Origin: Gammaproteobacteria bacterium
Lineage (GTDB): Bacteria > Pseudomonadota > Gammaproteobacteria > Eutrophobiales > Eutrophobiaceae
Assembly (NCBI GenBank): GCA_965221695.1
Contig: OZ244905.1
Coordinates: 2,976,001 to 3,040,000, forward strand
Reading direction: 5' to 3'
DNA: 64,000 nucleotides
Shown here: positions 3,254 through 17,648 of the stretch, in pieces
How the letters are laid out: each line of letters opens with the position of its first letter
How positions within the stretch are numbered: position 1 is the stretch's first letter
Translations under genes and position numbers: made by a program
The notes under the pieces: model-generated
What the model was told of the DNA's origin: nothing
Databases searched by the model: none
The model's input: only the letters and a program-made list of their open reading frames with translations

Positions 3254-3993
3254 TTCGGGATACTATTCTCATATATTTCCGCAGCGCGCGCCATGTCTGC
3301 GGGAAAATCTATCTCAATCCAGTTGCGGCCGGTGATGTCCTCAACGTGGAACAGTTCAGGTGTTTCCCTGAGCAGGTCGCGGATCGCTTCCTCGTAGGGC
3401 GCTTCCTCCAGGTTATTTTCCAGGTACTCCTCCAATTTGCGCGCCAGCCGCGCTGATGTGGCGGCATCGAAACGGAAGAAGCCCACGGACTCGCCCTGGT
3501 AATCCCAGCTTATCGCCGGGTCAGGTATCTTCCTGAATTCCACCGGCGTGGCGCCGGCGATGCACAGTTTTACCGGCTCATCGCCGGGTTCGAAGTCCCG
3601 GTCCAGCAGAAAACAGTTGGCGGCGCGCGTGTCGAATAACCTGCCCAGGATTTCCGGTTCATACAACACATCGGCATCCATCAGGATGGTGTCGGTCCCG
3701 TCGGCGAGCAGTGCGGAAGCGCAGCGCAGACTCACGATACTGCCTTGCTCATAGTCCGGGTTGACGGTGGTTTCGATGGGCGCGCGGCTTTCGATCTGCG
3801 CCAACGCCGCGCCTATCTGCTCGTGCCGGTAACCTGTCACGATGAATATACGCTCAATGCCCAGTGTATTCAGGTTCTCAATATGCCGTTGCAGCAGAGT
3901 TTTTTCTCCGAACTGCAACAGACACTTGGGCCGTCCTGCGGCAGTATCCCCCAGGCGCTGCCCGCGCCCTGCGGCCAGGATGATCGCTTTCAT
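3250..3993 (-). CDS. phosphocholine/phosphonate cytidylyltransferase family (LicC/PntC-like)
   Basis: [14 protein letters not shown]...PKCLL, MDADV, WIEIDF; 4-bp overlaps with pgi and pepM. Confidence 0.9.
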
Positions 3994-5654
3994 AAACGCG
4001 CCCGACGATATCTGTTCATCAATTGCTCCGTGGACGAGTCATGGGAGCCGGGCGCGGCGTCGCCGGCAAGTTCCCCGGCTATCTCTGCCGCCAGGGTCTT
4101 TCCCAGTTCCACGCCCCACTGATCGAAGGGGTTGATGCCCCAGATCGCGGCTTCCACGAAGGTTTTGTGCTCGTACAGGGCCAGCAGCATGCCCAGGGTG
4201 TACGGGTCCAGGCGATCATACAGGATGGTGGCGCTTGGGCGGTTACCGTCGAAGTGGCGGTGGGGTTCTGCCGTATTGGTACTGCCCCGCATCAGGGCTT
4301 CGCCCTGGGCCAGGCAGTTGGCGACTAACAGTTCGTGCTGTTTCATATCATGACGACTGCCCAGAGGCAGCAGAAAATCGATGGAGGCGACGCGCGCGCC
4401 CTGGTGTAGGAATTGGAAAACAGCATGTTGCGCCGGGCTGCCGACCCCGCCCCAGATCACCTGGGAGGTCTGCACGTCCAGCTTGCTGCCACCGGCGCCG
4501 ACCGACTTGCCGTTGCTCTCCATCACCAACTGGCCCAGGTAGGCCGGCAATCGCTCCAGCCTCTGGTCGTAGGGGATGATGGCATGCGTGCCGATGCCAA
4601 GAAAATTGTTGTGCCAGATACTGATCAAGCCCAGAATCACGGGGAGGTTGCCGCGGAGTTCGGCTGACGCAAAGTGCGTATCCAGCGCGTGCGCGCCGGC
4701 CAGGAACTGTTTGAATCGGGTTTCGCCGATGCTGATCACCGCGCTTGTGCCGATGCAGGACCAGATTGAATAGCGCCCGCCGGTCCAGTCCTCGATCCTG
4801 AAATAACGCGCTTCATCGATGCCGAAACGCGCCACCGCAGCGGCGTTGCCGGACACGGCCAGGAAGTGAAGTCTTGGGTCCGCGCAGCCATTGTCCCGCA
4901 GCCAGTCCTGCGCGCGCCGGGCATTGACCAGGGTTTCTGATGTGCTGAAGGACTTGGATGCAACAATGAACAGCGTTGTCTCCGGGTCGGCTTGCGCCAG
5001 CACGCGTTCGATATCAAACGGGTCGATATTGGCGACGAAATCAATGTCTATGCCATCTTCGTGGAATTCGGATAATGCCTCGACCAGCAGGCGCGGACCC
5101 AGGTCCGAACCGCCGATACCGATATTCACCACCTTGGTCAGGGGTTTTCCGCTGGCGCCACTGATTTCTCCGGCGCGCAAGCGTTGGATAAATGCGAACA
5201 TCCGCTCGCGTTCCTGCCGCGCCTGGAGGACTATCTCGGACAATTCATAGTTGTCTTTTGAATTGTGTGGTTGTCCTGTGGATTGTGTGGTTGTCCCATC
5301 AATTGTGTGGTTGTCCTGAATTAGGTGGGTATCATCGGGCTCCCGAAGCAAGGCATGCAGGGCAGGGCGGCGTTCTGTGGTGTTGATCGCGTGTCCTGAG
5401 AATAATTCGCTGATCCTGTCACGTAATCCGCGTTCTTGCGCCAGGTCCAGCAACAGCGCCAGGACCTCGTCGGTGATAAGATATTTTGAGAAATCGACAA
5501 AAATCCGCTCCAGGCCCAGTGCAAACCTCTGCGCTCGCCCGGGATCCCGCATAAACTCCTCGCACAACTGTAATCCGTCCAGTTGTTGCCGGCGCTCCGC
5601 CAACCGGCGCCAGGCCACAGTCTGCTCCGGTGTGATGTCGTTTTGTTTGGTCAT
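3990..5654 (-). CDS. pgi: glucose-6-phosphate isomerase (carries an in-frame repeat insertion)
   Basis: IGIGGSDLGP, ASKSFST, GGRYSIWS, MESNGK, FDQWGVELGK; start placed at ATG 5654. Confidence 0.95.
   Translation of the reverse strand: MTKQNDITPEQTVAWRRLAERRQQLDGLQLCEEFMRDPGRAQRFALGLERIFVDFSKYLITDEVLALLLDLAQERGLRDRISELFSGHAINTTERRPALHALLREPDDTHLIQDNHTIDGTTTQSTGQPHNSKDNYELSEIVLQARQERERMFAFIQRLRAGEISGASGKPLTKVVNIGIGGSDLGPRLLVEALSEFHEDGIDIDFVANIDPFDIERVLAQADPETTLFIVASKSFSTSETLVNARRAQDWLRDNGCADPRLHFLAVSGNAAAVARFGIDEARYFRIEDWTGGRYSIWSCIGTSAVISIGETRFKQFLAGAHALDTHFASAELRGNLPVILGLISIWHNNFLGIGTHAIIPYDQRLERLPAYLGQLVMESNGKSVGAGGSKLDVQTSQVIWGGVGSPAQHAVFQFLHQGARVASIDFLLPLGSRHDMKQHELLVANCLAQGEALMRGSTNTAEPHRHFDGNRPSATILYDRLDPYTLGMLLALYEHKTFVEAAIWGINPFDQWGVELGKTLAAEIAGELAGDAAPGSHDSSTEQLMNRYRRARL
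5242..5330. repeat. 20-bp-period tandem repeat (ATTGTGTGGTTGTCC core) inside pgi
   Basis: Units at 5261, 5281, 5301 plus degenerate flanking units. Confidence 0.85.
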
Positions 5655-5778
5655 AGGGGAAAATTCAACAATTATAGCCATAACTTCACATTAAGTGCTC
5701 TAAACTTCAGACGTTATTGAATTGCTGTAAATGCTACAGAACAAATGACATCAAGCTATGGGAGTGATACTTGTTTAG

Positions 5779-5805
5779 GGAACCTCTGATTAAGTCAGAG
5801 TTTCC
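5779..5805. mobile_element. 27-bp collapsed MITE, family 2
   Basis: GGAACCTCTGATTAAGTCAGAGTTTCC flanked by direct TTAG repeats (5775-5778, 5806-5809). Confidence 0.8.
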
Positions 5806-5881
5806 TTAGCTATACTGCGTGGGTGAAAGTTGATTTTGACAGTGTGCGCGAGGACAGTCAGACGGTATTGTCGCGCAAGTT

Positions 5882-7075
5882 TCAGAGGCGCCGATCTGCG
5901 TTTTGGCAGGCTTCGGAAAAAATCCGAACGGGTGGCCGGTAAATTCCACCACCGATACGGCCCTGTTTGCCCTCAATATCAAGCACACCGAGCGATATGA
6001 TCGGAGCGCTGTTTGTTTCCAACGTCCGCGTTGCAGTCAGGCCGAACAACACCTCGTTCTGCGTGAAGCCACCGTGCTTCCTGGCCAGGAGTTGATCCGG
6101 TAGAGTCAGCGCGTCATGAGGGATTACGGGGGCGAATAATTTCTGCTGGGCCGGCGCGAAGTTCAATGCCATCGCTCCCAGACCAAGCGCATCAATCAGC
6201 GCGCTGTCTCCAATCGCCCCCAGGGCATTGCCCGATGTAAATCCCTGGTTATAGATGGCATCTGGCGCTGCTGCGGGCGCCGTAAACCAGCGTCCGGGCA
6301 GTCCCGAAACCTGTAAACCGAACTCGATACCATTGCCCCCCATTGCTGTAATTACGCAACTTCCTTGCAGGCTTCTGGCTGCTTCCACGATGGTTTTTAC
6401 CGCGGCCATCCACAGGTTGAGAAAAAACGGTGGCGTGTTTTCAATGTAGTCGATAACTTGATGTGCATGCGCAATGCCGGCCAGACGGGTCTTTATTTGA
6501 TCTAAAAGCCGCAAAGTGGAGGCATATGTCCTGCCATGGCAGTCGTCACCCTCACTCAATCCAAAATCAGCTATCGGGATGAGTGAAATCCCTTCTTCAG
6601 GTATCGCCTGTCGCAGGACTTCACTGAAGCGACCATTCAACCAGCGCAAATGGTTGAGCACATCAGGATTGCACAGCCCAAACCGCAGAGCATGTTTCAT
6701 CCCTCCGTTGATGGCGCTGACTGCCTTCAGGCGGGGATTGTTTTCATCGGTAACAACCAGGACCGGCATTGAGGGAGAAAGCGTTGCCGCCAACGGTACC
6801 ATCGCACACAGATCCTGAGCCGGCCTCAGAGTCAGATCCCCGGCGAGCAGCATTTCTCGCGCTTGTTGCTTGTCATCTGCCCAGCCTTCATACAGGATTG
6901 CCATGACCGCGGAATTAACCATTGCTTCAGCCATATTTTCCGGATGCACTGGCGGCCCCGCATGCAGTATCATCCGCTCACCGATAGGAATCGCGTGATC
7001 AGCTCGCGTTATTCCCTTCCACACCGGATTGACATTTTCCATTACGTCCAGGGCTTGCAGATCATTCACATTCAC
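5882..7075 (-). CDS. DUF1116 (YlbE-like) protein
   Basis: ILHAGPP, GDDCHGR, FFLNLWMAA, GGNGIEFG, AIGDSA motifs. Confidence 0.8.
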   Translation of the reverse strand: MNVNDLQALDVMENVNPVWKGITRADHAIPIGERMILHAGPPVHPENMAEAMVNSAVMAILYEGWADDKQQAREMLLAGDLTLRPAQDLCAMVPLAATLSPSMPVLVVTDENNPRLKAVSAINGGMKHALRFGLCNPDVLNHLRWLNGRFSEVLRQAIPEEGISLIPIADFGLSEGDDCHGRTYASTLRLLDQIKTRLAGIAHAHQVIDYIENTPPFFLNLWMAAVKTIVEAARSLQGSCVITAMGGNGIEFGLQVSGLPGRWFTAPAAAPDAIYNQGFTSGNALGAIGDSALIDALGLGAMALNFAPAQQKLFAPVIPHDALTLPDQLLARKHGGFTQNEVLFGLTATRTLETNSAPIISLGVLDIEGKQGRIGGGIYRPPVRIFSEACQNADRRL

Positions 7076-7100
7076 GAAGATAAGACTGGTCCGAATTTAA

Positions 7101-7129
7101 GGAAGCTCTGACTTAATCTCAGAGGTTAC
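7101..7129. mobile_element. collapsed MITE, family 2; supplies the stop codon of the Rieske oxygenase
   Basis: TTAA-GGAAGCTCTGACTTAATCTCAGAGGTTAC-TTAG. Confidence 0.75.
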
Positions 7130-8477
7130 TTAGTTCTTTTACAAATTTGTCAATTTGCTGCTTTATTTGCTCAACTCTATCTGCTTGCTCCTGGTAATCG
7201 CCATTGATGATGATCTCTGTGATGCGTTTACCGATTTGCTTCAGAACAACCTGCTCATTTTCCTCACTGATGCCGGACACCTTGATCACCGTGTCATGAC
7301 AGTACGTGGGAATCGTTCCGTCCGGAAGACTCTTCACAGGCTGTTCCTCTGGTTTTCCGTCATTGAGGCAATCCACACTGCGCCGCAGGCGCTGACGTAA
7401 CTGCATTACGCCGCGATCGCCGAACGTCAGATGCTCCAGGTTGTGGTTGGCAATATTTCCCTGGGAAACCTGCGCATCATAATCTCCGGGTTCCTTTTGT
7501 CTGTCAGCGTAGGCCCGTTCTCCGGTCTGCCCAAAAAAGTCGACTTTTTCCAGACCACATTCAGTTTCATCATGCAGGCCGTCCGGGTTCTGGTCTTCAT
7601 TAAAATGGCGCCAACCGATTATCTTGCAGGTTTCATTATCCACGGGCGTCGTCCAGCGCGTGATGCCTACCCGTCCGATGTTTCCGAAATTCTTGAGACG
7701 TTCTCCCCCTTCCAATATGTATCCTACCTGAGCCAGATTAGGGAGAATGATGTCATTGGAACGAATCCAGACATGGTCTCCCTGGCGCCGTGTTGTGATA
7801 TAAATCATCCCTGTCGGTGTATCCTGCCATTGCAGGTCCGGCAACAGACCCCAGGTATCGGTAAAGTGGCTGAATGTCACGCGGGTGTGTAAAAATACCG
7901 CATGGACCGGATCCATCACATTTTCATGAACCTGCAGCCAGTTACAGGGATAAGTCAGACTGTACGGAACGAGTTTGTCCCCTGGAATCTCATAACTGTC
8001 GTATATCGGGAAATCGGGGATGTCTTCCGGCGGCCCGAAATAGCCAAAAACGAGTCCTTTATACTCGAGCGCGGGATAAGCAGGGTGGCATAATTGATTC
8101 TTGATTTTACTGGACGGTGGGTCACCCGGAGTATCCAGGAGCTGACCGTCAACCGCGAAATGCCAACCGTGGTAGCAGCACCTGATTCCTTGATCCGATG
8201 GAATTCCGAATTCAAGTGAAGATCCCCGGTGTGAGCAATGCCGCGCAAGGATCGCAACATCATTACGGCTGGTCCTGAAGACGACCAGTTCCTCCCCGAA
8301 CATCCGGAAAGCCTTGGGCGATACTTCTATCTCCGAACATAATGCCACGGGCTGCCAGACCCGCCGCAGAACCTCTCCCATGGGCGCCTTGTTTTCAACC
8401 GCGGTCAGAGTCAGATCAAGCTCGGGTTCAGTATGATAATAGCCGCCGAACGGTTGGGTGAGAAAAGCTTTTTTCAT
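7119..8477 (-). CDS. Rieske non-heme iron oxygenase, large subunit (phthalate 4,5-dioxygenase/LigX-like)
   Basis: CSHRG...CCYHGW Rieske motif; ENVMDPVHAVFLH mononuclear iron site. Confidence 0.9.
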   Translation of the reverse strand: MKKAFLTQPFGGYYHTEPELDLTLTAVENKAPMGEVLRRVWQPVALCSEIEVSPKAFRMFGEELVVFRTSRNDVAILARHCSHRGSSLEFGIPSDQGIRCCYHGWHFAVDGQLLDTPGDPPSSKIKNQLCHPAYPALEYKGLVFGYFGPPEDIPDFPIYDSYEIPGDKLVPYSLTYPCNWLQVHENVMDPVHAVFLHTRVTFSHFTDTWGLLPDLQWQDTPTGMIYITTRRQGDHVWIRSNDIILPNLAQVGYILEGGERLKNFGNIGRVGITRWTTPVDNETCKIIGWRHFNEDQNPDGLHDETECGLEKVDFFGQTGERAYADRQKEPGDYDAQVSQGNIANHNLEHLTFGDRGVMQLRQRLRRSVDCLNDGKPEEQPVKSLPDGTIPTYCHDTVIKVSGISEENEQVVLKQIGKRITEIIINGDYQEQADRVEQIKQQIDKFVKELSNL

Positions 8478-8501
8478 AAATACTCTGCGATGTCGGCGAG
8501 A

Positions 8502-10745
8502 TTAAAAACTGACGCCAAGAGTAACACTGTACCATCTCGGATGTCCCGGCATTAATTGAGCCATACCAAGCAGGGGCGTGAAATCGACCGAGTAATTCAG
8601 GTATTCCTTATCGAAAATATTTTCCACTGAAAAGCTGATACTGTAGCGCTCGTTGGCGGATTTATAACCGATCCTCCCATTCCACACACTGTAATCATCA
8701 TGAAAGTGAAACGGTGAGTTATCAATACTGAAATAATGATCATCCATGTAATTGAAATCCACCTGCAAAGAGATATTTCCCATGTCTCCCAGAGGATGAA
8801 AGTATCGAAAGATTCCATTTACAGTCACATCCGGAGACAAAGCGAGATCATTGCCGGTAAAATCCTGTCCCGGCAACCCGGTGTCAAAACCTTTATCGGC
8901 TTTGGTATCAAGCAGGCCCAGGCCTAATATCGCCTCGAAGTTTTCAACGGGCGTCAGCATTAATTCCAGCTCCGCCCCGTAGACTTCGGCATCTCCGTTG
9001 CCAAAAAAGGCCGTGCCGATAATGGGGAAAAACTGGTACTGCATATCCTGGTAATCGTAATAAAAAACAGAGGCGTTAGCGCGCAGTCTGTTGTTCATGA
9101 AGTCGCCTTTTATTCCTGCTTCATAGGCATACAGAATCTCCTCTTTAAATGGCTCCTCCTGCCCGGGCGTGTCGATATAAGAACCGTTAAATCCACCACT
9201 CTTGAAACCTGCGCTGAAACCGGCGTACAGCAACACATTATCGTTCAAACGAAAGTCAAGCCCGGCTTTGCCGGAAATATTCTCTTCATTGATGCTCCTG
9301 CGAGTATCAATAAATGTGGGAAAATTGACAGGATCCGGACTGCCAAAAATCAAGGTTCCTAGAAAGTCATAAATGGTTTCTTCAGCGTTTATCAGAAAAT
9401 CCTTGTCTTCTTCGGTATAGCGGATGCCTGCCACCGCGGTCAGCCGGTCAGTCAAATTAAAATCCAGTTGTCCGAAAACAGCCCAGGAAGAAGTATCCTG
9501 CTCCCAGCGGTTAGGCCCGACGGTGATACCGGAGAAGCCGTTGGTAAGGACTTGCACATCATCCCCGTCGAAGCTCTTTTTCGTATCGTCGAAGTAGTAG
9601 GCCCCCAACTGCCAGATGAAGTTCCCGTGTTCACCTGACAGCCTGACTTCCTGGCTGAATTGTTCCGCGTCGACCACAAATGTCGCAATGACGTTTTGGA
9701 CAGTGGGTCCGGCAGCAGGACTGGGACTGGCATCGGAATCCTCGGTGTAATTTCTTTTTATCTCTTCGTAACCCGTGATCGAGACAAATTCGATACCATT
9801 ACCCAATTGATAATTTATGGTTCCGTTTACGCCGAATGTTTCCATATCCAGCGGTCCGACAAAATTCTGGTCCGTTTTATAGAGATCGTCGTCCGTATCA
9901 CGATACCCCTGCGCATCGAAACAACCACCGGCCAGCGCCTGTTCCGTTGAACAAGGCATCGTGCCCGCCGGGTCGGTCGATAGCGTGCCCAAGTGCGCGT
10001 ATTGCGCGGCATTCTGGTCAACATCGGAGACATGGGCCCTGATCAATACATCCAGGTTATCGGCAGGCATAAAATGTAACTGCCCGCGTACAGACAGGTT
10101 TTCCCTGTCATTACCATCGCCACCAAGCCGGTTATCCATATAGCCATCGGCATTATTGGTCCGAACAGAAACACGTCCCATTAATTTGTCGCCGGCAAGA
10201 GGCCCGCTCACCGCCCCCTCAAAGTTGATGGTATCGTAGGAACCGTAAGTCAACTCGCCATAAGCCTCAAACTCCTCAGTGGGCTTTTTCGAAATAAAGT
10301 GCAATAACCCGCCCGTGGTATTCCGGCCATACAAAGTGCCTTGGGGGCCTCTCAGCGCCTCCACACGCTCGAGATCAAAAAGCTGTAAGGTTTGTCCGAC
10401 CTGCGTTCCCATGTAAATTCCGTCAATATAGAAAGCCACAGGACCTTCATTTGCATCACCAAAGTCATTCAGACCCACGCCACGCATGGAAAATGTCGGT
10501 GTGTTGCCTTCTCCGACCGGCAAACCGAATGAGAGGTTAGCGATATGCGCGACCACATCGGTTGAATTTTCAAAGCCCAGCTCCCTGACAGCCTCGCCTG
10601 AGAAGGCTGTAACGGAAACCGGCACGTCCTGCAAATTCTCCTCACGTTTCTGGGCAGTCACCAGAATTTCTTCGAGGATACCTTGCGCCGTCACTGCATT
10701 CGCATAAACGCTTGTTAACACCAGGACTGATAATAATATTCGCAT
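8502..10745 (-). CDS. TonB-dependent receptor
   Basis: Signal peptide, EEILVTAQKREE TonB box, LRGPQGTLYGRN plug, terminal Phe. Confidence 0.95.
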   Translation of the reverse strand: MRILLSVLVLTSVYANAVTAQGILEEILVTAQKREENLQDVPVSVTAFSGEAVRELGFENSTDVVAHIANLSFGLPVGEGNTPTFSMRGVGLNDFGDANEGPVAFYIDGIYMGTQVGQTLQLFDLERVEALRGPQGTLYGRNTTGGLLHFISKKPTEEFEAYGELTYGSYDTINFEGAVSGPLAGDKLMGRVSVRTNNADGYMDNRLGGDGNDRENLSVRGQLHFMPADNLDVLIRAHVSDVDQNAAQYAHLGTLSTDPAGTMPCSTEQALAGGCFDAQGYRDTDDDLYKTDQNFVGPLDMETFGVNGTINYQLGNGIEFVSITGYEEIKRNYTEDSDASPSPAAGPTVQNVIATFVVDAEQFSQEVRLSGEHGNFIWQLGAYYFDDTKKSFDGDDVQVLTNGFSGITVGPNRWEQDTSSWAVFGQLDFNLTDRLTAVAGIRYTEEDKDFLINAEETIYDFLGTLIFGSPDPVNFPTFIDTRRSINEENISGKAGLDFRLNDNVLLYAGFSAGFKSGGFNGSYIDTPGQEEPFKEEILYAYEAGIKGDFMNNRLRANASVFYYDYQDMQYQFFPIIGTAFFGNGDAEVYGAELELMLTPVENFEAILGLGLLDTKADKGFDTGLPGQDFTGNDLALSPDVTVNGIFRYFHPLGDMGNISLQVDFNYMDDHYFSIDNSPFHFHDDYSVWNGRIGYKSANERYSISFSVENIFDKEYLNYSVDFTPLLGMAQLMPGHPRWYSVTLGVSF

Positions 10746-10827
10746 CGCAACCTCCTTACACTATTCAGGATGTAATCATTTTACCTCTTTAAAAATCAAC
10801 CACCTGCTTCTCACTCATAGCCAGCTT

Positions 10828-12180
10828 CTATACTTTAACCTCTTCCGCTTCAACTTGGCTGGTTGTCAGCCTCTCCTTGGCTTTTTTGATTAATACGTCC
10901 AAAACTCCCGGCTCATCCGCCAGGATACGTCTACCACTGATATTTGCTTCCGACATCAGTATCTTCACCTGTTTTACCAAATGTCTATCGTCATAAATAT
11001 CCTTTCCATACCCCAATTCCCTCAGCCTGTTGCGGATCACCGCCGGCATTGCCAGCGCCGGTGTAATACGCCATCCGGACTTATGGCCGATTGCCTCCGG
11101 GTTCAAGTCTTGCGGTCTGTCTGTCTGCACGAACGCTTCGTCAACATAGTGAAATGACCGTTTTCCGAAAACCGGATAATCCTCATGCAGCGGTTCCCCC
11201 ATATGAATGACCGACATCCTCTCCACAATTGGATACAATTTATCTACCGCATAGGTATCACTTACGTGCTCATTGCCTGCGCGCAGTAAATTACAGATCA
11301 ACATCGCGCCCGAACTATGACCTCCCTGCGCGGCGTGCGGAGAAAGACCTGCCCAGATTCCATCCGCGCCGGCCAGAATGGAATCAATCGCCGATGCATC
11401 CTCCATGCCGTTGCCGGAATGGGAATGTACCAGTATCAGTCTGGGAGGCGTTACATACTTTCGAATAAGCCTGACCAATTCCGCATTCTGAAAAGGAAAG
11501 TGAGTGCCGCGCACATCCTCAAAAATAACCGCCTGGATGGGAAGTTGTTGCAGCAGTTTCAGCGTCTGTGTCAAAAACCTGGGATCCTGATCCCAGGCGT
11601 CGAAAATATCTACAAAACGGATAAATATCCTGCCGCGCCGTCCCGTCGGCTGAGGCAGGATTTCCCGCAGATATTCAACATTTCTGACGATATCACGGAA
11701 CAGGTCGTCGTAGGTCCGGCCAGTCGCTTTCAGGAGTTCCGGTTCAAGATATATCAATAACAGACAGTTCGGCGTGCCTACTGATTCAAATTGCCGTTGG
11801 CTGTAGGTAGGCTTGAATGGTTTGTCTTTTTCAGTTTTCGCCGGCATCAGGTTCGAAAAATAGCCATCCATGGAATCGCCAGACTCCCTGAGTTGCTCTG
11901 CAAACACCTGATCGACATTTTCGTAATCGAAATAGCCGGTTATCGATATGTCCTCGAATCCAAATTCCTTGGACAGTGACAGTAGTTCATGCTTATCATC
12001 CAAGGTATGACCATAACTTGCCGGCAAACTCCCTTCTCTTGGCGCCATATCCAGGATAAACGGTTTGATATTTTTCAAAATTGCCAGTTTGCGATCAATT
12101 TGCTCCCTGACTCCTTCGGTGGCTTTCAGGTCTGTTTCATCGAGCCGGGTCAATTTCTTAATATCAGCCTCAAGCATCAC
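10828..12180 (-). CDS. DRE-TIM metallolyase family protein (LeuA/HMGL-like), function unknown
   Basis: ILDMAPREG helix, HSH metal motif, GADGIW. Confidence 0.6.
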   Translation of the reverse strand: MMLEADIKKLTRLDETDLKATEGVREQIDRKLAILKNIKPFILDMAPREGSLPASYGHTLDDKHELLSLSKEFGFEDISITGYFDYENVDQVFAEQLRESGDSMDGYFSNLMPAKTEKDKPFKPTYSQRQFESVGTPNCLLLIYLEPELLKATGRTYDDLFRDIVRNVEYLREILPQPTGRRGRIFIRFVDIFDAWDQDPRFLTQTLKLLQQLPIQAVIFEDVRGTHFPFQNAELVRLIRKYVTPPRLILVHSHSGNGMEDASAIDSILAGADGIWAGLSPHAAQGGHSSGAMLICNLLRAGNEHVSDTYAVDKLYPIVERMSVIHMGEPLHEDYPVFGKRSFHYVDEAFVQTDRPQDLNPEAIGHKSGWRITPALAMPAVIRNRLRELGYGKDIYDDRHLVKQVKILMSEANISGRRILADEPGVLDVLIKKAKERLTTSQVEAEEVKV

Positions 12181-12197
12181 TCTATCTCACGCAATCA

Positions 12198-13169
12198 TTA
12201 ACTCTGACTTTCCGACACAATCTGATTTCGAGCGGCCAGAGTCCTGATCTGGACGAATATCGTCTTGAGGAAACCATTTTCACAATGTTTGATGCGGCCC
12301 TCAAGTAACTCCGTTAATTCAGCCAGCCTGTGAAACGGGACAAGAGGCGCGGCATGGTGGGCGCTGTGATACGGCATACGCCAGGAAAGCATGGAAAGCA
12401 GCGGATTTAACAGTACCGTTCTCGAATTTTCCATCATGTCCGGCGACTTCGCGCAGCACACATGTTCAGTCATACGTATCAGGCGTTCTACAGGTTCCAT
12501 AATCACTCTTGGGGCAAGCCAGAAAACAACTATTGCCCAGGTCTGATATAAAATGGATAACGCAGCCAGACCCACATAAATACACAAAAATATGCAGGCT
12601 TCCAACTGAACTTTCTTGCGCTCGGCGGCGGGTACCGCTCGTCGCGTTATTGCGTTCATCCAGCCAAACGGCTGCAGTAACAGGTTCCGGGCAATGTTAT
12701 AAAAATAAGGAATGGCCGAGCCATACCAAAGATATTGCCAGAGATTCTCAGCCTTCACGTATTGGGCATCGCGCGCCGGGTCCTGGGTATATGTGTGATG
12801 ATCAGCATGCTCATACCTGAATGCCAGCGGTGGTAACATCAATATCAAACCAGTGATCCAAAACAGGGTATTGTTGAGCCACCTGGTTTTAAACACCGTT
12901 CCATGTGATGCTTCATGGTATGGCGCAAACAACCGGACGATAATAAAACCATGTAGAAGCAGAGCAGGATAAAACCAGGCTGAATCCAGCACAGAGTAAA
13001 GTAAACAACCGGTGCATCCTACTGCGCTGAAATGGAACAAGGCGAATACAAGCCCGCTTCGGTCCTGGCGTTGCATCAGTTCTGCCATCCTTCTTGGACC
13101 CACCAAATCCCTTACGGCCGCAGAAGCGGCAATGGTCGTATTACGGCTGCCCGATTGCATATCATTCAT
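12198..13169 (-). CDS. membrane di-iron fatty acid desaturase family, MocD-like
   Basis: His boxes HEASH, HADHH, HSAHH; TM segments. Confidence 0.85.
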   Translation of the reverse strand: MNDMQSGSRNTTIAASAAVRDLVGPRRMAELMQRQDRSGLVFALFHFSAVGCTGCLLYSVLDSAWFYPALLLHGFIIVRLFAPYHEASHGTVFKTRWLNNTLFWITGLILMLPPLAFRYEHADHHTYTQDPARDAQYVKAENLWQYLWYGSAIPYFYNIARNLLLQPFGWMNAITRRAVPAAERKKVQLEACIFLCIYVGLAALSILYQTWAIVVFWLAPRVIMEPVERLIRMTEHVCCAKSPDMMENSRTVLLNPLLSMLSWRMPYHSAHHAAPLVPFHRLAELTELLEGRIKHCENGFLKTIFVQIRTLAARNQIVSESQS

Positions 13170-13188
13170 CTTATGACGATAGTAAATA

Positions 13189-13287
13189 TTCCACTATGCG
13201 GAATTATGTTCTATAATGATATCGAAAATGGTTTATTCTGTCAAACAGAAAGTAGAAAAGAAAGCATAAAAGTTCAACTATGATGAA
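13189..13287. promoter_or_regulatory. two related 15-bp palindromic boxes, probable IclR-family operators in a divergent promoter
   Basis: TTCCACTATGCGGAA (13189-13203) and TTCAACTATGATGAA (13273-13287). Confidence 0.5.
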
Positions 13288-13297
13288 ATAACAGAAA

Positions 13298-13624
13298 ATG
13301 AGCGCATTTGATGAATTGACCTGGCATGACGTTGCAGATGTATCACAGGTTGATGACCTGTTGCCACTGGCGGTGGAAATCGCCGGGCGTTTTATCTCGT
13401 TGTACAGAGTTAAGGACGAAATATATGCCACCGCAAATATCTGCTCACACGAAGAAGCCTTGTTATCCGAAGGTTATATTGATGATGATGAGATTGTCTG
13501 TCCGATTCACCAGGCAAGGTTTCATATACCCACAGGCAGGGTTCTTTGCGCGCCGGCAACGGAAGATATTCTCGTTTATCCCGTGCGTATTACGGAAAAT
13601 CGGGTTTTAGTCGGAATCTCGTGA
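13298..13624 (+). CDS. Rieske [2Fe-2S] ferredoxin (MocE/NahAb-like)
   Basis: CSH...CPIH motif, 108 aa. Confidence 0.93.
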   Translation: MSAFDELTWHDVADVSQVDDLLPLAVEIAGRFISLYRVKDEIYATANICSHEEALLSEGYIDDDEIVCPIHQARFHIPTGRVLCAPATEDILVYPVRITENRVLVGIS

Positions 13625-13627
13625 AAA

Positions 13628-14137
13628 TTATCGAATTGCTACGCCGAGCACAATCGAGGTAGAGCAATGATAGGCCTGGCTGCTGACGCCCAGACACCAG
13701 TTGTATTCATTTGAGAGAAATGGCGTATGCATTGGTCGCGAGCCTTCATTTCTTGTGCACAGACAACGCCCGCAGGAGCTTTTACCACAGCAGTCGTTGT
13801 ATGAAATAATGTAATCCTTGCCGTCTTCGGGATTTCTGCAAGTTCCTATCCATGTAATTGGCGACATCTCGGCGCCAGGCGGACAAGTGTTGTAGCTGCC
13901 CCCGCAACATGAACAGAGAAAACCGTCAATAGCGCAATAACGCCAGTAATCACACTCTCTGGGATTTACGGCCTGCTCACTGGCCGATGAAGTTTCAGTA
14001 GCGCGGGCTACGGGCAACAACGGTATGGCGGATGTCCCCAGCAGGATTCTGCCCAGCGCGGCCAGTACGTTGCGCCGCGAGGTCCGTTTTGCAATAACGC
14101 GCACAACTTTTTCACTGATGTCATCAAAATAATTCAT
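13628..14137 (-). CDS. mauA: TTQ amine dehydrogenase small subunit (MauA/AauA family)
   Basis: Tat signal SRRNVL; Cys-rich CDYWRYCAIDG; both TTQ Trp positions present (ITWIG, YNWCL). Confidence 0.95.
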   Translation of the reverse strand: MNYFDDISEKVVRVIAKRTSRRNVLAALGRILLGTSAIPLLPVARATETSSASEQAVNPRECDYWRYCAIDGFLCSCCGGSYNTCPPGAEMSPITWIGTCRNPEDGKDYIISYNDCCGKSSCGRCLCTRNEGSRPMHTPFLSNEYNWCLGVSSQAYHCSTSIVLGVAIR

Positions 14138-14185
14138 TGATTACGAGCTGCGTATGTAGTCTGTCATGATTATGTAGTAACTGCA

Positions 14186-15355
14186 TTACCTGGAAACAGG
14201 CGTCTGCAGGATAGTGGGAGTCTGTCCTAGTTGTGTGACTTTACGCAGCAACGAGCCTGCTTCGGCATCGTAAATCAAAAGTTCCGGATAGGCTGAAAAG
14301 ACTGCAAAAAGCAATGGGTTATCGTCTTGCGATAATAGAATAGCGGTTGCCAGTTGTTCAAGTTTAATGGTCTTTGTGCGTTTTCTTGTGCGCAAATTGT
14401 ATACCCAGACGTCACGGCCCGGATCTTTATAAGAATCATTATTGCCCTGGTGCATCAAGACATACAGTCGTGATTGCCGCTGGTGCACCGCTAACGGTTG
14501 CAGGCCGCTCATAATCCATCCTTCAGTACGTTCCGCGTCCGATAGCAGAGACCATTTCTCATGGAATACCGGCTCTCCACTACTTGTGTGTGATACCGGG
14601 TAAATATATCCACGGACAGATGAAAATAGCCATTGTTCTCCGAAGCGAACGGCTTTTTCAGATACAAAATCACCTTCAGGGTCAAAAAATTGCCTGGTAC
14701 GATACTTTCTTTTATTCTGCCCGTTCTCATCCAGGTCTATCACAAGCAGTGTTCCATCCGCACATATCGATGCCAGCGTCTGCGCGCCGAAGGCATACAC
14801 CATGGCGCACCCACTTGTTTCGATTTCTCTTATAAATCTGTGTTCTTTGACATCAACAAGACTGATGGTCTGTGCCGGAGTATAGTTGTAAACAGCCAGG
14901 AATCGGTTATCATCAGTAAGCGTGGCATTTTGTGTAGTCGGGATGGTTTCAGCCCGTTTAGGTGGTATCTCAATCTCCGCTACAGGGAATAGTGTCCCGG
15001 CATCATAGATCGTGATCACATCTGTTCTCGTACCGCGTGTGCCACGGGACCAGTAGGTCTCAGGCGAGTAAATCGCGCGGTAATCACTTGGCAGCGCCAA
15101 CGCCATTCCATGTATGCCAGTGCTCAACATGCCCAGCATATCGCCGCTATCACCGTCAATAAGGAAAGCCCTTCCTGCTTCAAGATGGGTAAACGAAACG
15201 TCATTGATCCAGACCCAGTGTGGGTTTGGTTGTGCTGGAAGTTCTCTTACGTTGCCCAGCTTTTCTGCAGGTAACTCTGCGACAACATCAGTAATAAGCA
15301 GTGACAGAACTGCCAAGGCAGCCAGAGCGGTCACGTTGTGTGAACGGTTCAACAC
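14186..15355 (-). CDS. mauB: TTQ amine dehydrogenase large beta-propeller subunit (MauB/AauB family)
   Basis: ETYWSRGTRGTRTDV, YNYTPAQTISLVD, LYVLMH; signal peptide. Confidence 0.93.
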   Translation of the reverse strand: MLNRSHNVTALAALAVLSLLITDVVAELPAEKLGNVRELPAQPNPHWVWINDVSFTHLEAGRAFLIDGDSGDMLGMLSTGIHGMALALPSDYRAIYSPETYWSRGTRGTRTDVITIYDAGTLFPVAEIEIPPKRAETIPTTQNATLTDDNRFLAVYNYTPAQTISLVDVKEHRFIREIETSGCAMVYAFGAQTLASICADGTLLVIDLDENGQNKRKYRTRQFFDPEGDFVSEKAVRFGEQWLFSSVRGYIYPVSHTSSGEPVFHEKWSLLSDAERTEGWIMSGLQPLAVHQRQSRLYVLMHQGNNDSYKDPGRDVWVYNLRTRKRTKTIKLEQLATAILLSQDDNPLLFAVFSAYPELLIYDAEAGSLLRKVTQLGQTPTILQTPVSR

Positions 15356-15358
15356 AGT

Positions 15359-16162
15359 CTATCCACCCAGATTCCTGGTTATTTCATCTGAAGAATGTTT
15401 CAGATAACTGACCAGGACCTTCGTATCCAGTTTCAGGAAACGGTCAGCCGGTCCAATAATGCCTACACTGCCTATGACCTCATGTGAGCTATCGAAAATA
15501 GGCATGGCTATACCAGCCGCCCCTTCACTGATTTCTTCAATAGACGTGGCGAAACCATATTTTTTTATGCGGTCCAGTTCATTTTCAATCAGTTTTCTGT
15601 CGGTAATTGTCTTATCGGTTAATTTCTCCATGGAATTAGATAAGGCAACTTCCACTTCATCATCATGCATGAACGCGAGGACCGCTTTAGCTGAACCACC
15701 AGCGTGTAGCGGAACATGCTGGCCATCTTCCATCATCAACCTTAAACCGGGGTTATTATTGATTTGCAACGCGCATATTACCGAATCCCTTAGGGGACTC
15801 AGCATCATGAGTATCGCTGTCTCTCTTGTCCGCGCGGATAAATTATTAAGGACAGGATGTGTAATACGGCGGATATCGATCTGCGCCAGGGCGCGCTGAC
15901 CGATCTGCAAAGCCAGAGGACCAAGCCGGTACTGCTCGGAATCCGCATCCTGGGAGAGAATTTTTTTATCCTGCAAGACAGTTAAAATACGGTGCACCGT
16001 GGTTTTCGGTAATCCTGTCTCTTTCGTGACTCCAGCGAGAGTCCAACTGGGATGCTCGGTGGAAAATAATTCAATTATCTGAAATGTCTTATCAAGTATC
16101 TTGATCTGTGGAGGGGAATTCCTACGCGGTCTGCCGCGACGTTTTGCCATTTGTGAGTCCAA
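15359..16162 (-). CDS. IclR family transcriptional regulator
   Basis: HTH GLPKTTVHRIL; PLHAGGSAKAVLA; GIAMPIF. Confidence 0.93.
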   Translation of the reverse strand: MDSQMAKRRGRPRRNSPPQIKILDKTFQIIELFSTEHPSWTLAGVTKETGLPKTTVHRILTVLQDKKILSQDADSEQYRLGPLALQIGQRALAQIDIRRITHPVLNNLSARTRETAILMMLSPLRDSVICALQINNNPGLRLMMEDGQHVPLHAGGSAKAVLAFMHDDEVEVALSNSMEKLTDKTITDRKLIENELDRIKKYGFATSIEEISEGAAGIAMPIFDSSHEVIGSVGIIGPADRFLKLDTKVLVSYLKHSSDEITRNLGG

Positions 16163-16180
16163 CTCTGTGACGGGCGCACA

Positions 16181-16795
16181 TTAATGGCTTATCCAGGTTT
16201 CGGAAAACGCCAAAAAAGCGCTACTCATGGAGCGACCAAAAAATTGGCGGGGATACACATTTCCTTTAAGCGTTCGGCCATTAACAGTTATTTCGGCCGA
16301 ACCTGCCTCTACAAACAGGCTGTACATCTGATGCTCGCCAGTAGCGCTTTGATCTTTATCAACGTCAACAGCAAACGGTTCGCCCAACTCTCCCCAGGCC
16401 ATTATGATCTCAATGTTTCCGCCTGTCACAGTCTCCATATAAGCGCCATGCGTATCACCGCTCGTTTTTATGTTTTCTATTGGCACGCGCGTCATTGCCG
16501 TCAGACCGGCACGATTCCGGAAGGTTGGAAACTTAGAGACAAAATCCCGCAAAATGTAGTCCGTCATCGCATCGTTATCAGTCATCAGCACATTAGCCAC
16601 ATCCGGCATTCCGTTTGCCTCATCCGGCCTTTCCAGCAACAGTAGAAAGTTGCCTCTACCATGCGGAGACACGACAACACGTCCGAAGACAGCAAGCGTA
16701 ATCCAAGGCCCATCAGGATTATCACGCAGGTAAATTCCCGGATTTTCACCCGACCATTCGACTTTACCAGGATTGATTGGACTTTTATCGGTCAT
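16181..16795 (-). CDS. conserved hypothetical protein
   Basis: 204 aa with AAAGGGGA upstream; WSGENPGIYL N-terminus, SAFLAFSETW C-terminus; first gene of the iclR-mauB-mauA run. Confidence 0.75.
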   Translation of the reverse strand: MTDKSPINPGKVEWSGENPGIYLRDNPDGPWITLAVFGRVVVSPHGRGNFLLLLERPDEANGMPDVANVLMTDNDAMTDYILRDFVSKFPTFRNRAGLTAMTRVPIENIKTSGDTHGAYMETVTGGNIEIIMAWGELGEPFAVDVDKDQSATGEHQMYSLFVEAGSAEITVNGRTLKGNVYPRQFFGRSMSSAFLAFSETWISH

Positions 16796-16835
16796 GGTAT
16801 TATCCCCTTTGTAGACTGGCTGTTGTCAAATAATT

Positions 16836-16909
16836 CGCCCTGAAGAGGATTCGAACCTCTGGCCTTCCGCTTAGGAGGCGGACGCTCTATCCAACTGAGC
16901 TATCAGGGC
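16836..16909 (-). tRNA. tRNA-Arg(CCT), CCA not encoded
   Basis: GCCCTGA...TCCGC-CTCCTAA-GCGGA...GGTTCGAATCC...TCAGGGCG cloverleaf. Confidence 0.95.
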
Positions 16910-16973
16910 ACAGTTCGGGAATTAAATGATTCCCGGTTGACCGAGTAAAGCATATCATTTATTAATTCTCTCC

Positions 16974-17648
16974 ATGCAAAAATATTCAGTTATCATTCCC
17001 GCCCTCAATGAGGCGGACTATATTGGCGCGACCTTGGAACGGCTCCAACCGGCTCGCGCCAGGGGCCATGAAGTGATCCTGGTGGATGGCGGCAGCGCGG
17101 ATGACACCTGTGGGATCGCGGCCGGCGCAGCGGATCGCGTGTTGCAATGGCATTCCGGCAGGGCCAGGCAAATGAATTGCGGCGCCGAGGCCGCGCGCGG
17201 CGAGGTCTATGTTTTCCTCCACGCCGACACCTTGATACCCACCGACTTTGACAAGCTCCTGGATGCTCGCGATGTCTGCGAAAATACCTGGGGGAGCTTC
17301 GATATCAGGTTGTCCGGCCAGCATATCAGTTTCCGTTGTATCGAGCGATGCATGAATCTTCGCTCAAGACTGACCGGTATCGCTATGGGAGACCAGGCTA
17401 TTTTTACCGGTTCTCATCTGTTTCATCGTGTAAATGGTTATGCGGACATCCCGTTGATGGAGGATATTGAATTGTGCGCCAGGCTGAAACAGATTTCTGC
17501 GCCGATCCGTATAAGACAACCTGTTGTCAGCTCATCCCGACGCTGGGAGCAACATGGCATCGCCAGCACTGTGCTGCTTTCATGGAAACTGAGACTCTGT
17601 TATACGTTCGGCGCCGACCCTAAGCAACTCGCACGGCTCTACCACTAA
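16974..17648 (+). CDS. GT2 glycosyltransferase, TIGR04283-like
   Basis: SVIIPALNE, GRARQMN.GA, FLHADT, GDQAIF, MEDIE, SSRRW. Confidence 0.9.
   Translation: MQKYSVIIPALNEADYIGATLERLQPARARGHEVILVDGGSADDTCGIAAGAADRVLQWHSGRARQMNCGAEAARGEVYVFLHADTLIPTDFDKLLDARDVCENTWGSFDIRLSGQHISFRCIERCMNLRSRLTGIAMGDQAIFTGSHLFHRVNGYADIPLMEDIELCARLKQISAPIRIRQPVVSSSRRWEQHGIASTVLLSWKLRLCYTFGADPKQLARLYH

Follow-up and report, generated by a model that had tools for sequence, protein, structure and literature searches.

A horizontally acquired gene island that joins a TTQ amine dehydrogenase to oxygenase and DRE-TIM genes, and its possible role in primary amine catabolism

What is achieved by a set of genes in which a periplasmic quinoprotein dehydrogenase is encoded together with oxygenases, a DRE-TIM metallo-enzyme and an outer-membrane receptor? 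The question is raised by a stretch of 64,000 nucleotides (the window; positions 2,976,001 to 3,040,000 of contig OZ244905.1, assembly GCA_965221695.1) from a marine gammaproteobacterium of the Eutrophobiaceae. Ten genes of the window encode the two chains of a tryptophan tryptophylquinone (TTQ) amine dehydrogenase, a Rieske oxygenase, a membrane di-iron hydroxylase, a single ferredoxin, a DRE-TIM protein, a DUF1116 protein, a TonB-dependent receptor, an IclR regulator and a protein of 204 residues. The present analysis shows that this block is a horizontally acquired genomic island associated with a tRNA gene. With regard to its function, we consider it probable, although by no means secure, that the island is a modular catabolic unit for a primary amine, with an undescribed oxygenase/lyase core that operates in the cytoplasm.

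A tRNA-associated island of ten genes

All ten genes are open frames and are found at the coordinates, and with the families, that had been given in a preliminary description of the sequence (Pfam, NCBIfam and, for the DRE-TIM protein, a fold search). They form three transcription units. In total, 17 proteins of the region were scanned, using a Pfam threshold of E ≤ 0.001 and reading the NCBIfam scores against the curated cut-offs. Operon 1, on the minus strand, starts with the gene of the 204-residue protein (16795–16181) and continues with those of the IclR-family regulator (267 residues, 16162–15359), the TTQ heavy chain (389 residues, 15355–14186) and the TTQ light chain (169 residues, 14137–13628), the last two genes being 48 nt apart. 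Operon 2, also on the minus strand, comprises the genes of the fatty-acid-desaturase-like di-iron hydroxylase (323 residues, 13169–12198), the DRE-TIM protein (450 residues, 12180–10828), the TonB-dependent outer-membrane receptor (747 residues, 10745–8502), the Rieske non-haem iron oxygenase (452 residues, 8477–7119) and the DUF1116/AllG-family protein, which is cytoplasmic (397 residues, 7075–5882). Between the two operons lies the lone plus-strand gene, which encodes the Rieske-type [2Fe-2S] ferredoxin (108 residues, 13298–13624).

The GC content is 0.47–0.55 inside the block and 0.58–0.62 on its left flank, and GC3 is 0.47–0.57 inside compared to 0.62–0.78 in the flanking genes, the value for the whole genome being 0.55 GC. 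A tRNA-Arg(CCT) gene (16835–16910, minus strand; 73.1 bits with the Rfam tRNA model, also called by ARAGORN) is located 40 nt from the first island gene, such that the island lies on the 3′ side of the tRNA. In two of the five congeners examined (G004 and G012) the site is empty, with pgi directly adjoining tRNA-Arg, followed by the same GT2 and DUF2064 genes; in the other three, pgi is not within the ca. 1.2–1.5 kb that were inspected beside the tRNA. Because pgi and tRNA-Arg are directly adjacent in these two genomes, the window genome (G000) carries an insertion of 11,153 bp at 5682–16834, that is, from the pgi start codon to the 3′ end of the tRNA. A Pfam scan finds no integrase among the island genes, the window contains no second copy of the 28-nt 3′ end of the tRNA at up to three mismatches, and no convincing direct repeat is present at the island ends.

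Within the genus, a close match to the DRE-TIM gene is found in two of 23 genomes, namely the window genome and G003, while a third, G017, gives a weak match only (E = 4.9e-6). The G003 copy (locus L001) preserves the synteny of all ten genes, with 70–88% amino-acid identity, at a different chromosomal site. There the set adjoins ureide-catabolism genes, the orthologues of which lie at 636–640 kb in the window genome, and a sodium:solute symporter and a second TonB receptor come after the DUF1116 gene. The earlier proposal that the genes form one unit is borne out by this recurrence of the whole block and by an alphaproteobacterial metagenome-assembled genome (L002) in which five of the genes constitute one operon.

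Recurrence of the core beside other amine-removing enzymes

The gene-neighbourhood check that had been suggested for the block shows that its core genes co-occur elsewhere (L001, L002, G434 and L075). Locus L002 was reached through homology of the DRE-TIM protein. Here, five core genes and the gene of a 693-residue flavoenzyme are arranged head to tail, spaced by between a few and about 40 bases, in the order Rieske oxygenase (56% identity to the island protein), flavoenzyme, hydroxylase (45%), DRE-TIM protein (56%), ferredoxin (44%) and 204-residue protein (49.5%). Genes for a PotABCD-type importer and a LysR regulator are located upstream, while the TTQ, TonB receptor, IclR and DUF1116 genes are absent. 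The flavoenzyme matches histamine dehydrogenase (3k30) with 731 bits over residues 6–679 and trimethylamine dehydrogenase with 565 bits. The FMN-linking Cys is aligned between the flavoenzyme and 3k30, as are Gln65, Glu79, Trp267 and Asp358, one of them as Glu, which we take to be the substrate-contacting positions of the Nocardioides histamine dehydrogenase.

A different combination is found in G218 (locus L075), in which the 204-residue protein is encoded together with PotA, a binding protein (SBP_bac_8/SBP_bac_1 in Pfam, with no NCBIfam family at E ≤ 1e-8), two permeases, a Rieske oxygenase (41%), a class III aminotransferase, an aldehyde dehydrogenase of the betaine-aldehyde/aminobutyraldehyde type and an FNR-type reductase. 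Class III aminotransferases also stand beside the DRE-TIM gene in L020 and L024, and PotD-type binding proteins are encoded in two relatives, with scores of 182–184 bits that are below the cut-off of 582. In the alphaproteobacterium G434 (L094), a DUF1116 gene (38.6%), truncated by the contig end, directly adjoins the DRE-TIM gene (38%), and the hydroxylase gene (45%) is divergent. Orthologues of the Rieske oxygenase are present in L001, L002, L021, L024 and L075. Three non-homologous amine-removing enzymes are thus seen near the core, i.e., the TTQ dehydrogenase in the window, the flavoenzyme of histamine-dehydrogenase type in L002, and the class III aminotransferase with the aldehyde dehydrogenase in L075. 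As judged from gene content, such an exchange of amine-removing enzymes beside a recurring core supports a role in amine catabolism.

A broader view is obtained from 20 other loci in which the DRE-TIM gene has 38% identity or more to that of the island, pooled from a metagenome scan, L001, L002 and L094. The open frames of related loci were called by a longest-frame rule, which is error-prone in GC-rich DNA, and were counted only when they had a family match or homologues. In 11 of these loci, at most 6 kb separates the hydroxylase gene from the DRE-TIM gene. Among the remaining nine, six have 2-oxoglutarate (2OG)/Fe(II) oxygenases, RidA, an amidase, a GhrA-like reductase and hydantoinase-B instead of the hydroxylase, in two the Rieske oxygenase is accompanied by genes for sarcosine oxidase, a GbcA-like oxygenase, a BKACE enzyme and a class III aminotransferase, and one is too short to judge. 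Where the DRE-TIM gene is less than 37% identical, the hydroxylase is found in none of ten loci. The DRE-TIM subfamily occurs in one of 400 scored Gammaproteobacteria (the host itself; one further genome was left unscored) and in four of 401 sampled Alphaproteobacteria (about 1%).

One branch of the DRE-TIM subfamily, with 45–46% identity, consists of L014, L015, L017, L018, L019 and L027. Loci of this type encode two 2OG/Fe(II) oxygenases, RidA, an AtzE-like amidase, a GhrA-like reductase, a conserved, uncharacterised protein of 171–254 residues and hydantoinase-B, which, from the gene annotations, looks like a different uncharacterised pathway for a nitrogen compound, built around the same DRE-TIM enzyme.

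It is necessary to consider here whether the block might be a mosaic of independent modules that travel together, rather than one pathway. The modules would be the TTQ genes with IclR; the hydroxylase, ferredoxin, DRE-TIM and DUF1116 genes; the Rieske oxygenase with the 204-residue protein; and the TonB receptor. Such a composition would account for L075, which has the Rieske oxygenase and the 204-residue protein without the DRE-TIM protein or the hydroxylase, for L012, L016, L020 and L022, which have the hydroxylase and the DRE-TIM protein without the Rieske oxygenase, for the 14 of 15 best alphaproteobacterial loci in which the gene of the 204-residue protein is apart from all other island genes, and for an inverted repeat of 21 nt that brackets the DUF1116 gene alone. 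It is more difficult to reconcile with the interleaving of the modules in the window, where the gene of the 204-residue protein heads the IclR–TTQ operon and the receptor gene is placed between those of the DRE-TIM protein and the Rieske oxygenase, with the tight five-gene operon of L002, with the presence of one ferredoxin gene in the island for two ferredoxin-dependent oxygenases, and with the movement of the whole set as a block between two chromosomal sites. We regard both the mosaic and this particular division into modules as improbable.

The encoded proteins and their likely chemistry

Among PDB sequences, the nearest match of the TTQ light chain is aromatic amine dehydrogenase (AADH, 2agl_D; 166 bits, E = 4.8e-48), to which both TTQ-forming tryptophans (in CDYWR and NWC) and the cysteine framework are aligned. 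The light chain scores 165 bits on PF02975 (cut-off 25) and its translation begins with a twin-arginine leader (SRRNVL). The heavy chain, the beta-propeller subunit of such enzymes, for which a signal peptide is read in the translation, scores 174.9 bits on PF06433 and ca. 154 bits (E about 1e-44) against the heavy chains of methylamine dehydrogenase (MADH) and AADH in the PDB. The NCBIfam scores, 154.9 versus a cut-off of 196.85 for the light chain and 181.8 versus 454.45 for the heavy chain, do not reach the methylamine dehydrogenase equivalogs, and the sequences thus assign the enzyme to the family but not to this equivalog. The heavy-then-light gene order, the quinone tryptophans, the cysteine-rich core and the export signals are the same as in the AADH of Alcaligenes faecalis and in MADH. 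The island differs from these systems in that mauE/mauD do not separate the subunit genes, that the cluster contains neither mauG nor a cupredoxin gene, and that the enzyme is embedded among oxygenase/lyase genes rather than in an operon of the mau/aau type, the layout of which is taken here as general background.

Although a Pfam scan finds no mauE or mauD in the island, a MauE gene (100 bits) with a MauD-like neighbour is encoded at 2.38 Mb (C1:2382575–2382952; L039:741–1896), about 0.6 Mb away. The neighbour is thioredoxin-like and has 181.6 bits on the MauD model, just below the cut-off of 188.6. The pair is flanked by citrate synthase and CoA-transferase genes and is distant from each of the four TTQ loci of the genome. 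MauE is present once per genome in 22 of the 23 genomes of the genus, exactly those that have a TTQ light chain (in one to four copies), while G010 has neither. This coincidence of MauE and the light chain across the genus suggests that a single trans-acting maturation pair serves all TTQ paralogues. A pseudoazurin-like cupredoxin is also encoded in the window genome, outside the island.

All four TTQ heavy–light pairs of the window genome are without mauE/mauD between the subunit genes. The other three (C1, 346–347.7 kb, 889.5–891.2 kb and 2435–2437 kb; L101, L102 and L103) have light chains that are 54–60% identical to that of the island. One pair stands beside an acetylpolyamine-amidohydrolase-like gene, PaaK, PaaZ and a thioesterase. 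Another comes after TetR and TonB receptor genes and before those of acyl-CoA dehydrogenase, carboxyltransferase, enoyl-CoA hydratase and biotin carboxylase, of the leucine/isovalerate type. A further pair precedes a Ring_hydroxyl_A-type Rieske oxygenase and an OYE flavoenzyme. From the contexts of the four pairs, we infer that the periplasmic TTQ enzymes of this host feed aldehydes into dedicated cytoplasmic routes, and that the organism habitually combines a TTQ enzyme with a TonB receptor. Wired to different downstream pathways, the four dehydrogenases offer a natural comparison set.

The island receptor, composed of a Plug and a barrel and provided with a signal peptide, has 164 bits on the NCBIfam model for the TonB-siderophore subfamily, below the cut-off of 223.5, and is seen only in the window and L001 versions of the cluster. 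An amine-specific subfamily formed with the receptor beside another TTQ pair was also considered. It was rejected, as the identity is 33% and other paralogues are closer. A tblastn search of the window genome (3.54 Mb) with the island receptor gives 67 TonB-dependent-receptor-like matches at E < 1e-20, which indicates a very large receptor repertoire.

The Rieske oxygenase is of the alpha-only type and consists of a Rieske [2Fe-2S] domain followed by a mononuclear-iron catalytic domain (PF00355, 54.6 bits, and weak VanA_C/LigXa_C matches; motifs CSH...CCYH and DPVHAVFLH in the translation). Among solved structures, phthalate dioxygenase (7fjl, 139 bits) is the closest, aligned over residues 23–207 of 452 only. 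The hydroxylase scores 114.2 bits on PF00487 (cut-off 29.7) and displays the His boxes HEASH, HADHH and HSAHH in its translation. It has no PDB sequence match at E ≤ 0.01, and its best NCBIfam match, GntB, reaches 45 bits versus a cut-off of 380, such that no equivalence to a characterised member is found. The ferredoxin (PF00355, 67.9 bits) scores 99 bits on AndAb, 86 bits on HcaC and 66.5 bits on the MocE family, all below the NCBIfam cut-offs. The window genome encodes a single ferredoxin reductase of the Reductase_C type, outside the island at 1.72 Mb, and this protein is AndAa/HcaD-like; it therefore matches the island ferredoxin, whose best matches are AndAb and HcaC.

MocD, MocE and MocF form the three-component hydroxylase of rhizopine catabolism. 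The island has in common with it a membrane fatty-acid-desaturase-like di-iron enzyme and a small Rieske ferredoxin within what would be a catabolic cluster for a polar amine-bearing compound. It differs in the score of the ferredoxin relative to the MocE-family cut-off of 136 bits (MocE being the only one of the three models compared) and in that a Pfam scan finds no MocF-type reductase and no MocA, MocB or MocC genes in the island. A second hydroxylase (40% identity) and Rieske ferredoxin (38%), in the same divergent layout, are encoded elsewhere in the window genome (C1:1738268–1739575; L104:7233–8579). This second pair is located beside genes for a soxBDAG sarcosine oxidase, an aldehyde dehydrogenase, a sulfatase and an alpha/beta Rieske dioxygenase, ca. 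18 kb from the only Reductase_C-type ferredoxin reductase of the genome.

The 450-residue protein has no Pfam match at the threshold used, including the HMGL-like family PF00682, and only weak NCBIfam matches; it has about 241 homologues, and PF00682 is a precomputed match in nine of the 120 that were listed. Its predicted structure (pLDDT 91.2) yields 321 PDB matches in Foldseek at E ≤ 0.001, led by 4ov9, 3mi3 and 2ztj. The best matches are isopropylmalate synthase (IPMS, 4ov9, E = 1.5e-14), homocitrate synthase (HCS) and citramalate synthase (CMS), followed by HMG-CoA lyase and DmpG-type aldolases. On the basis of this model, the protein is assigned as a DRE-TIM barrel of a divergent, uncharacterised subfamily. 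In 27 sequences of the family, E49, H252 and H254 are invariant and R48 is nearly invariant, and the HxH pair aligns to the His pair in 'FHGHNDTG' of homocitrate synthase; the equivalents of E49 and H252/H254 are presumably metal ligands. The loop 'SHKAGMH' of the Thermus HCS, which we take to carry the catalytic His that activates acetyl-CoA in HCS and IPMS, corresponds to a gap of five residues in the profile alignment of the family, and the NCBIfam synthase models give 17–31 bits versus cut-offs of 413–600. Because the R-E and HxH metal site is kept while the synthase catalytic-His loop is not alignable, we lean towards a chemistry of the lyase, aldolase or decarboxylase type on a 2-oxo-acid. 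Compared to the DRE-TIM metallolyases (HCS, IPMS, CMS, HMG-CoA lyase and 4-hydroxy-2-oxovalerate aldolase), the TIM barrel and this metal site are the same, and a motif 'EDvRG' aligns to 'DTVG'; different are the identity, which is 12–20% only, and the absence of LeuCD/LeuB-type or DmpF-type partners from the island. No fusions of the DRE-TIM protein are found among proteins of 789–2250 residues, a type of (Rosetta-stone) evidence that is weak in itself.

The 204-residue protein belongs to no family in Pfam or NCBIfam, in line with the preliminary description. It has 809 database homologues, of which those named by their source are all called 'hypothetical protein', and in the ESM Atlas it matches only clusters without names. 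The predicted structure (pLDDT 90.8) has a beta-cone fold, for which Foldseek returns MppR (4jme_B, E = 7.3e-4, TM 0.39), and VIA aligns 152 residues to 3bh2 with a Z of 8.4 and an rmsd of 4.8, Z values of about 8 being common for unrelated models. According to the model, the protein weakly resembles acetoacetate-decarboxylase (ADC)-like enzymes, since members of this superfamily (ADC, MppR, Sbi_00515 and Swit_4259) are its best structural matches. It differs from them in that the identity is 10–12%, the chain is ca. 50 residues shorter and the family alignment contains no invariant lysine for Schiff-base chemistry. With 34 of 401 sampled Alphaproteobacteria, its family is commoner than the DRE-TIM subfamily. 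The 15 best loci of these are heterogeneous and reveal no consistent genomic partner; a DRE-TIM or hydroxylase gene is found in none of them and a Rieske oxygenase gene in one. The database copy of the protein from the host genome (P0133) has 142 residues and is 100% identical over 70% of the query. As the homologues are 199–215 residues long and conserved from residue 9 onward, this existing gene call probably starts too late.

The DUF1116 protein scores 213.6 bits on PF06545, well above the cut-off, and matches 3clq, an 'uncharacterized protein', over its full length (E = 5.7e-44). AllG, a DUF1116 protein, is a subunit of the E. coli AllFGH oxamate carbamoyltransferase. In the island, the neighbour of DUF1116 is instead the DRE-TIM enzyme, as also in G434, and neither FdrA/AllF-like partners (CoA_binding and Ligase_CoA) nor DUF2877/AllH are found among the 17 proteins around the gene, to which this search was confined. 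Among 20 DUF1116 representatives (19 longer than typical, and P0241 with 397 residues), 12 are fused to CoA-ligase domains of the FdrA type and none to a DRE-TIM domain, while others carry GntR and MarR DNA-binding, CoxG, AtzH-like or NmrA domains (P0347, P0376, P0305, P0319 and P0382). Fusion to DNA-binding and other domains hints at small-molecule binding as a possible role of DUF1116, which would then not be confined to that of a catalytic subunit. The two arms of the inverted repeat mentioned above (5788–5808 and 7098–7118, 95% complementary) bracket the DUF1116 gene exactly, with one arm in each spacer, and the left arm overlaps a hairpin at 5784–5800. The repeat could be a regulator site, a terminator pair or the trace of a cassette insertion.

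A proposed route and its alternatives

If the island serves the catabolism of a primary amine, the following sequence of events can be envisaged, in which the order of the steps and every substrate are inferred. The TonB receptor would carry the amine across the outer membrane, and the TTQ dehydrogenase would convert R-CH2-NH2 to the aldehyde and ammonia in the periplasm, passing the electrons to a periplasmic carrier encoded elsewhere. The TTQ cofactor would be matured by the distant MauE/MauD pair, which would also serve the three other TTQ enzymes. The product would then enter the cell through a carrier that is not encoded in the window copy of the island. In the cytoplasm and at the inner membrane, the Rieske oxygenase and the MocD-like hydroxylase, sharing the one ferredoxin, would hydroxylate it, with the ferredoxin reduced in trans by the AndAa/HcaD-type reductase. 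The oxygenated intermediate would be brought to central metabolites by the beta-cone protein, which is presumably cofactor-less, the DRE-TIM enzyme and the DUF1116 protein, the DRE-TIM enzyme making or breaking a C–C bond on a 2-oxo-acid-like intermediate. The IclR protein would regulate the gene set and sense one of the intermediates.

As to the substrate, the most likely class comprises small cationic amines related to histamine, agmatine or diamines, although this reading by itself has only about one chance in three. A ring-bearing amine such as histamine is suggested by the nearest relatives, i.e., AADH, histamine dehydrogenase and phthalate dioxygenase. Aliphatic di- or polyamines, or methylated amines, are suggested by the PotD-type binding proteins, the omega-aminotransferases and the sarcosine oxidase and BHMT-like methyltransferases encoded nearby. 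The two sets of leads are not exclusive, because the solved histamine dehydrogenases are also active on agmatine and putrescine. Hence, the amine breakdown that had been proposed earlier is supported by the three amine-removing enzymes beside the core, while the aromatic or heterocyclic nature of the substrate is not established, the aliphatic leads fitting equally well. A more specific form of the proposal would be an undescribed oxidative route for amines of this type, in which an interchangeable deaminating front end (TTQ enzyme, flavoenzyme or omega-aminotransferase) feeds a fixed core. This remains tentative and is somewhat unlikely to hold in full. The same degree of doubt applies to the composition of such a core, which would consist of the Rieske oxygenase, the MocD-like hydroxylase, the new DRE-TIM subfamily, a solitary DUF1116 protein and the beta-cone family of more than 800 members.

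A histamine pathway has been described in Pseudomonas, and two sources (PMC8231116, PMC6467879) list for this hin route the aminotransferase HinC, the aldehyde dehydrogenase HinD, the FAD-monooxygenase HinF, the amidases HinG and HinH and the enamine deaminase HinL. The hin pathway of P. putida U and P. aeruginosa follows the same logic, namely that the side-chain amine is taken off and the rest is then oxygenated and dismantled, and the amine-removing enzyme of the L002 relative is of the histamine dehydrogenase type. None of the enzyme types listed there is found in the island by the Pfam scan, and the hin pathway was consequently rejected as a match. Should histamine be the substrate, the steps after amine removal would constitute a new route.

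In a narrower form of the earlier proposal, an aromatic amine related to tyramine, phenylethylamine or tryptamine would be degraded, and the Rieske enzyme would hydroxylate the ring in preparation for its cleavage. The proximity of the light chain to AADH (166 bits), the phthalate dioxygenase relationship of the Rieske oxygenase and the likeness of the ferredoxin to AndAb and HcaC of aromatic dioxygenase systems all point in this direction, but the phthalate dioxygenase match does not extend beyond the Rieske domain and the first part of the catalytic domain, and neither the island nor L002 contains an extradiol or intradiol ring-cleavage dioxygenase, a cis-diol dehydrogenase or a gene of a meta or ortho pathway. 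In addition, the importers of the relatives are PotD-type, and the host TTQ pair beside the paa genes would already serve phenylethylamine. An aromatic amine is therefore a poor candidate in our view.

Several observations weigh against the assignment of the island to amine catabolism and have to be set beside its support. Only two genomes, both of the same genus, have been found to contain all ten genes together, and some of the loci used above are probable close relatives rather than independent cases (L012/L013; L014/15/17/18/19/27; L024/L025). No TTQ gene adjoins the core in any other lineage examined, so that the link between the TTQ enzyme and the core rests on the interleaving of the genes and on analogy. 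The separate location of the gene of the 204-residue protein in alphaproteobacteria and the gap at the synthase catalytic-His loop of the DRE-TIM family count in the same direction. As stated in the preliminary description, the Pfam scan finds no ferredoxin reductase, aldehyde dehydrogenase or inner-membrane transporter in the block. These are real gaps in the island; a reductase of the AndAa/HcaD type and the MauE/MauD pair are encoded elsewhere in the genome. With the aldehyde dehydrogenase, the transporter and the reductase missing, a complete route cannot be drawn from the island genes. Finally, no dedicated MauG is found. The sole CCP_MauG-family protein of the genome is a SCO1/SenC–MbnH/MauG-like di-haem fusion of 612 residues (C1:1516716–1520165; L011:937–2775), which scores 232 bits as MbnH-like and 194 bits on the MauG model versus a cut-off of 444; it could also be a candidate for TTQ completion in the four dehydrogenases. 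Its gene lies beside one for SBP56, a selenium-binding protein family that, we assume, includes methanethiol oxidase.

That the block instead makes, modifies and re-imports a secreted small molecule of a siderophore-like or signalling kind, with the DRE-TIM protein as the synthase and the oxygenases as tailoring enzymes, is very improbable: the closest folds of the DRE-TIM protein are indeed synthases (IPMS, HCS and citramalate synthase), the best subfamily model of the receptor is 'TonB-dependent siderophore receptor' and the best NCBIfam match of the hydroxylase is the biosynthetic GntB, but the receptor and GntB scores fall well short of the curated cut-offs, the catalytic His loop of the synthases has no aligned counterpart, the Pfam scan finds no nonribosomal peptide synthetase (NRPS), NRPS-independent siderophore (NIS) synthetase, exporter or precursor-supply gene in the island, a periplasmic amine dehydrogenase is a catabolic type of enzyme, and in the relatives the core is accompanied by importers, aminotransferases and an aldehyde dehydrogenase.

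The catabolic island for a primary amine is thus the reading that we retain. In agreement with the earlier statement that the gene combination is not a described pathway, no characterised pathway was matched by it in the Pfam and NCBIfam libraries or in searches of the open-access full-text literature. Judging from the family models, each part is a member of a known superfamily and none reaches the equivalog cut-off of a characterised enzyme. Two or three enzyme families of the island have no assigned function. The island couples a periplasmic quinoprotein to a cytoplasmic oxygenase/lyase set that has no characterised counterpart, and the three non-homologous amine-removing enzymes that are swapped around one core provide a testable handle on the substrate. 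Biogenic amines and polyamines constitute a sizeable pool of dissolved organic nitrogen, for which, to our knowledge, few bacterial routes are known. If the proposal is correct, two or three protein families would obtain their first assigned function, and a new marine fate of biogenic amines would be defined.

With respect to regulation, the HTH_IclR and IclR_C domains of the IclR protein are both above their Pfam cut-offs, and the protein is not a BhcR equivalog according to NCBIfam (153.4 bits versus a cut-off of 350). An Rfam search of 5400–17200 at E ≤ 1 returns only the tRNA and one sub-threshold match, and hence no riboswitch or other RNA element that would name a ligand. The top promoter-like site of the region, with 11 of 12 matches, is on the minus strand at 13244–13216, upstream of the hydroxylase gene in the divergent intergenic region of 128 nt (13170–13297) between the hydroxylase operon and the ferredoxin gene; over the whole region, the counts of promoter-like sites are not above the shuffled expectation.

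The neighbouring PEP-mutase genes were also considered as part of the system and were excluded, as they lie outside the insertion, in high-GC core DNA. Located at 1628–3993 of the window, they encode a fusion of PEP mutase and a nucleotidyltransferase (541 residues) and a second MobA-like nucleotidyltransferase (247 residues), which, from their domain content, look like a phosphonate-biosynthesis pair.

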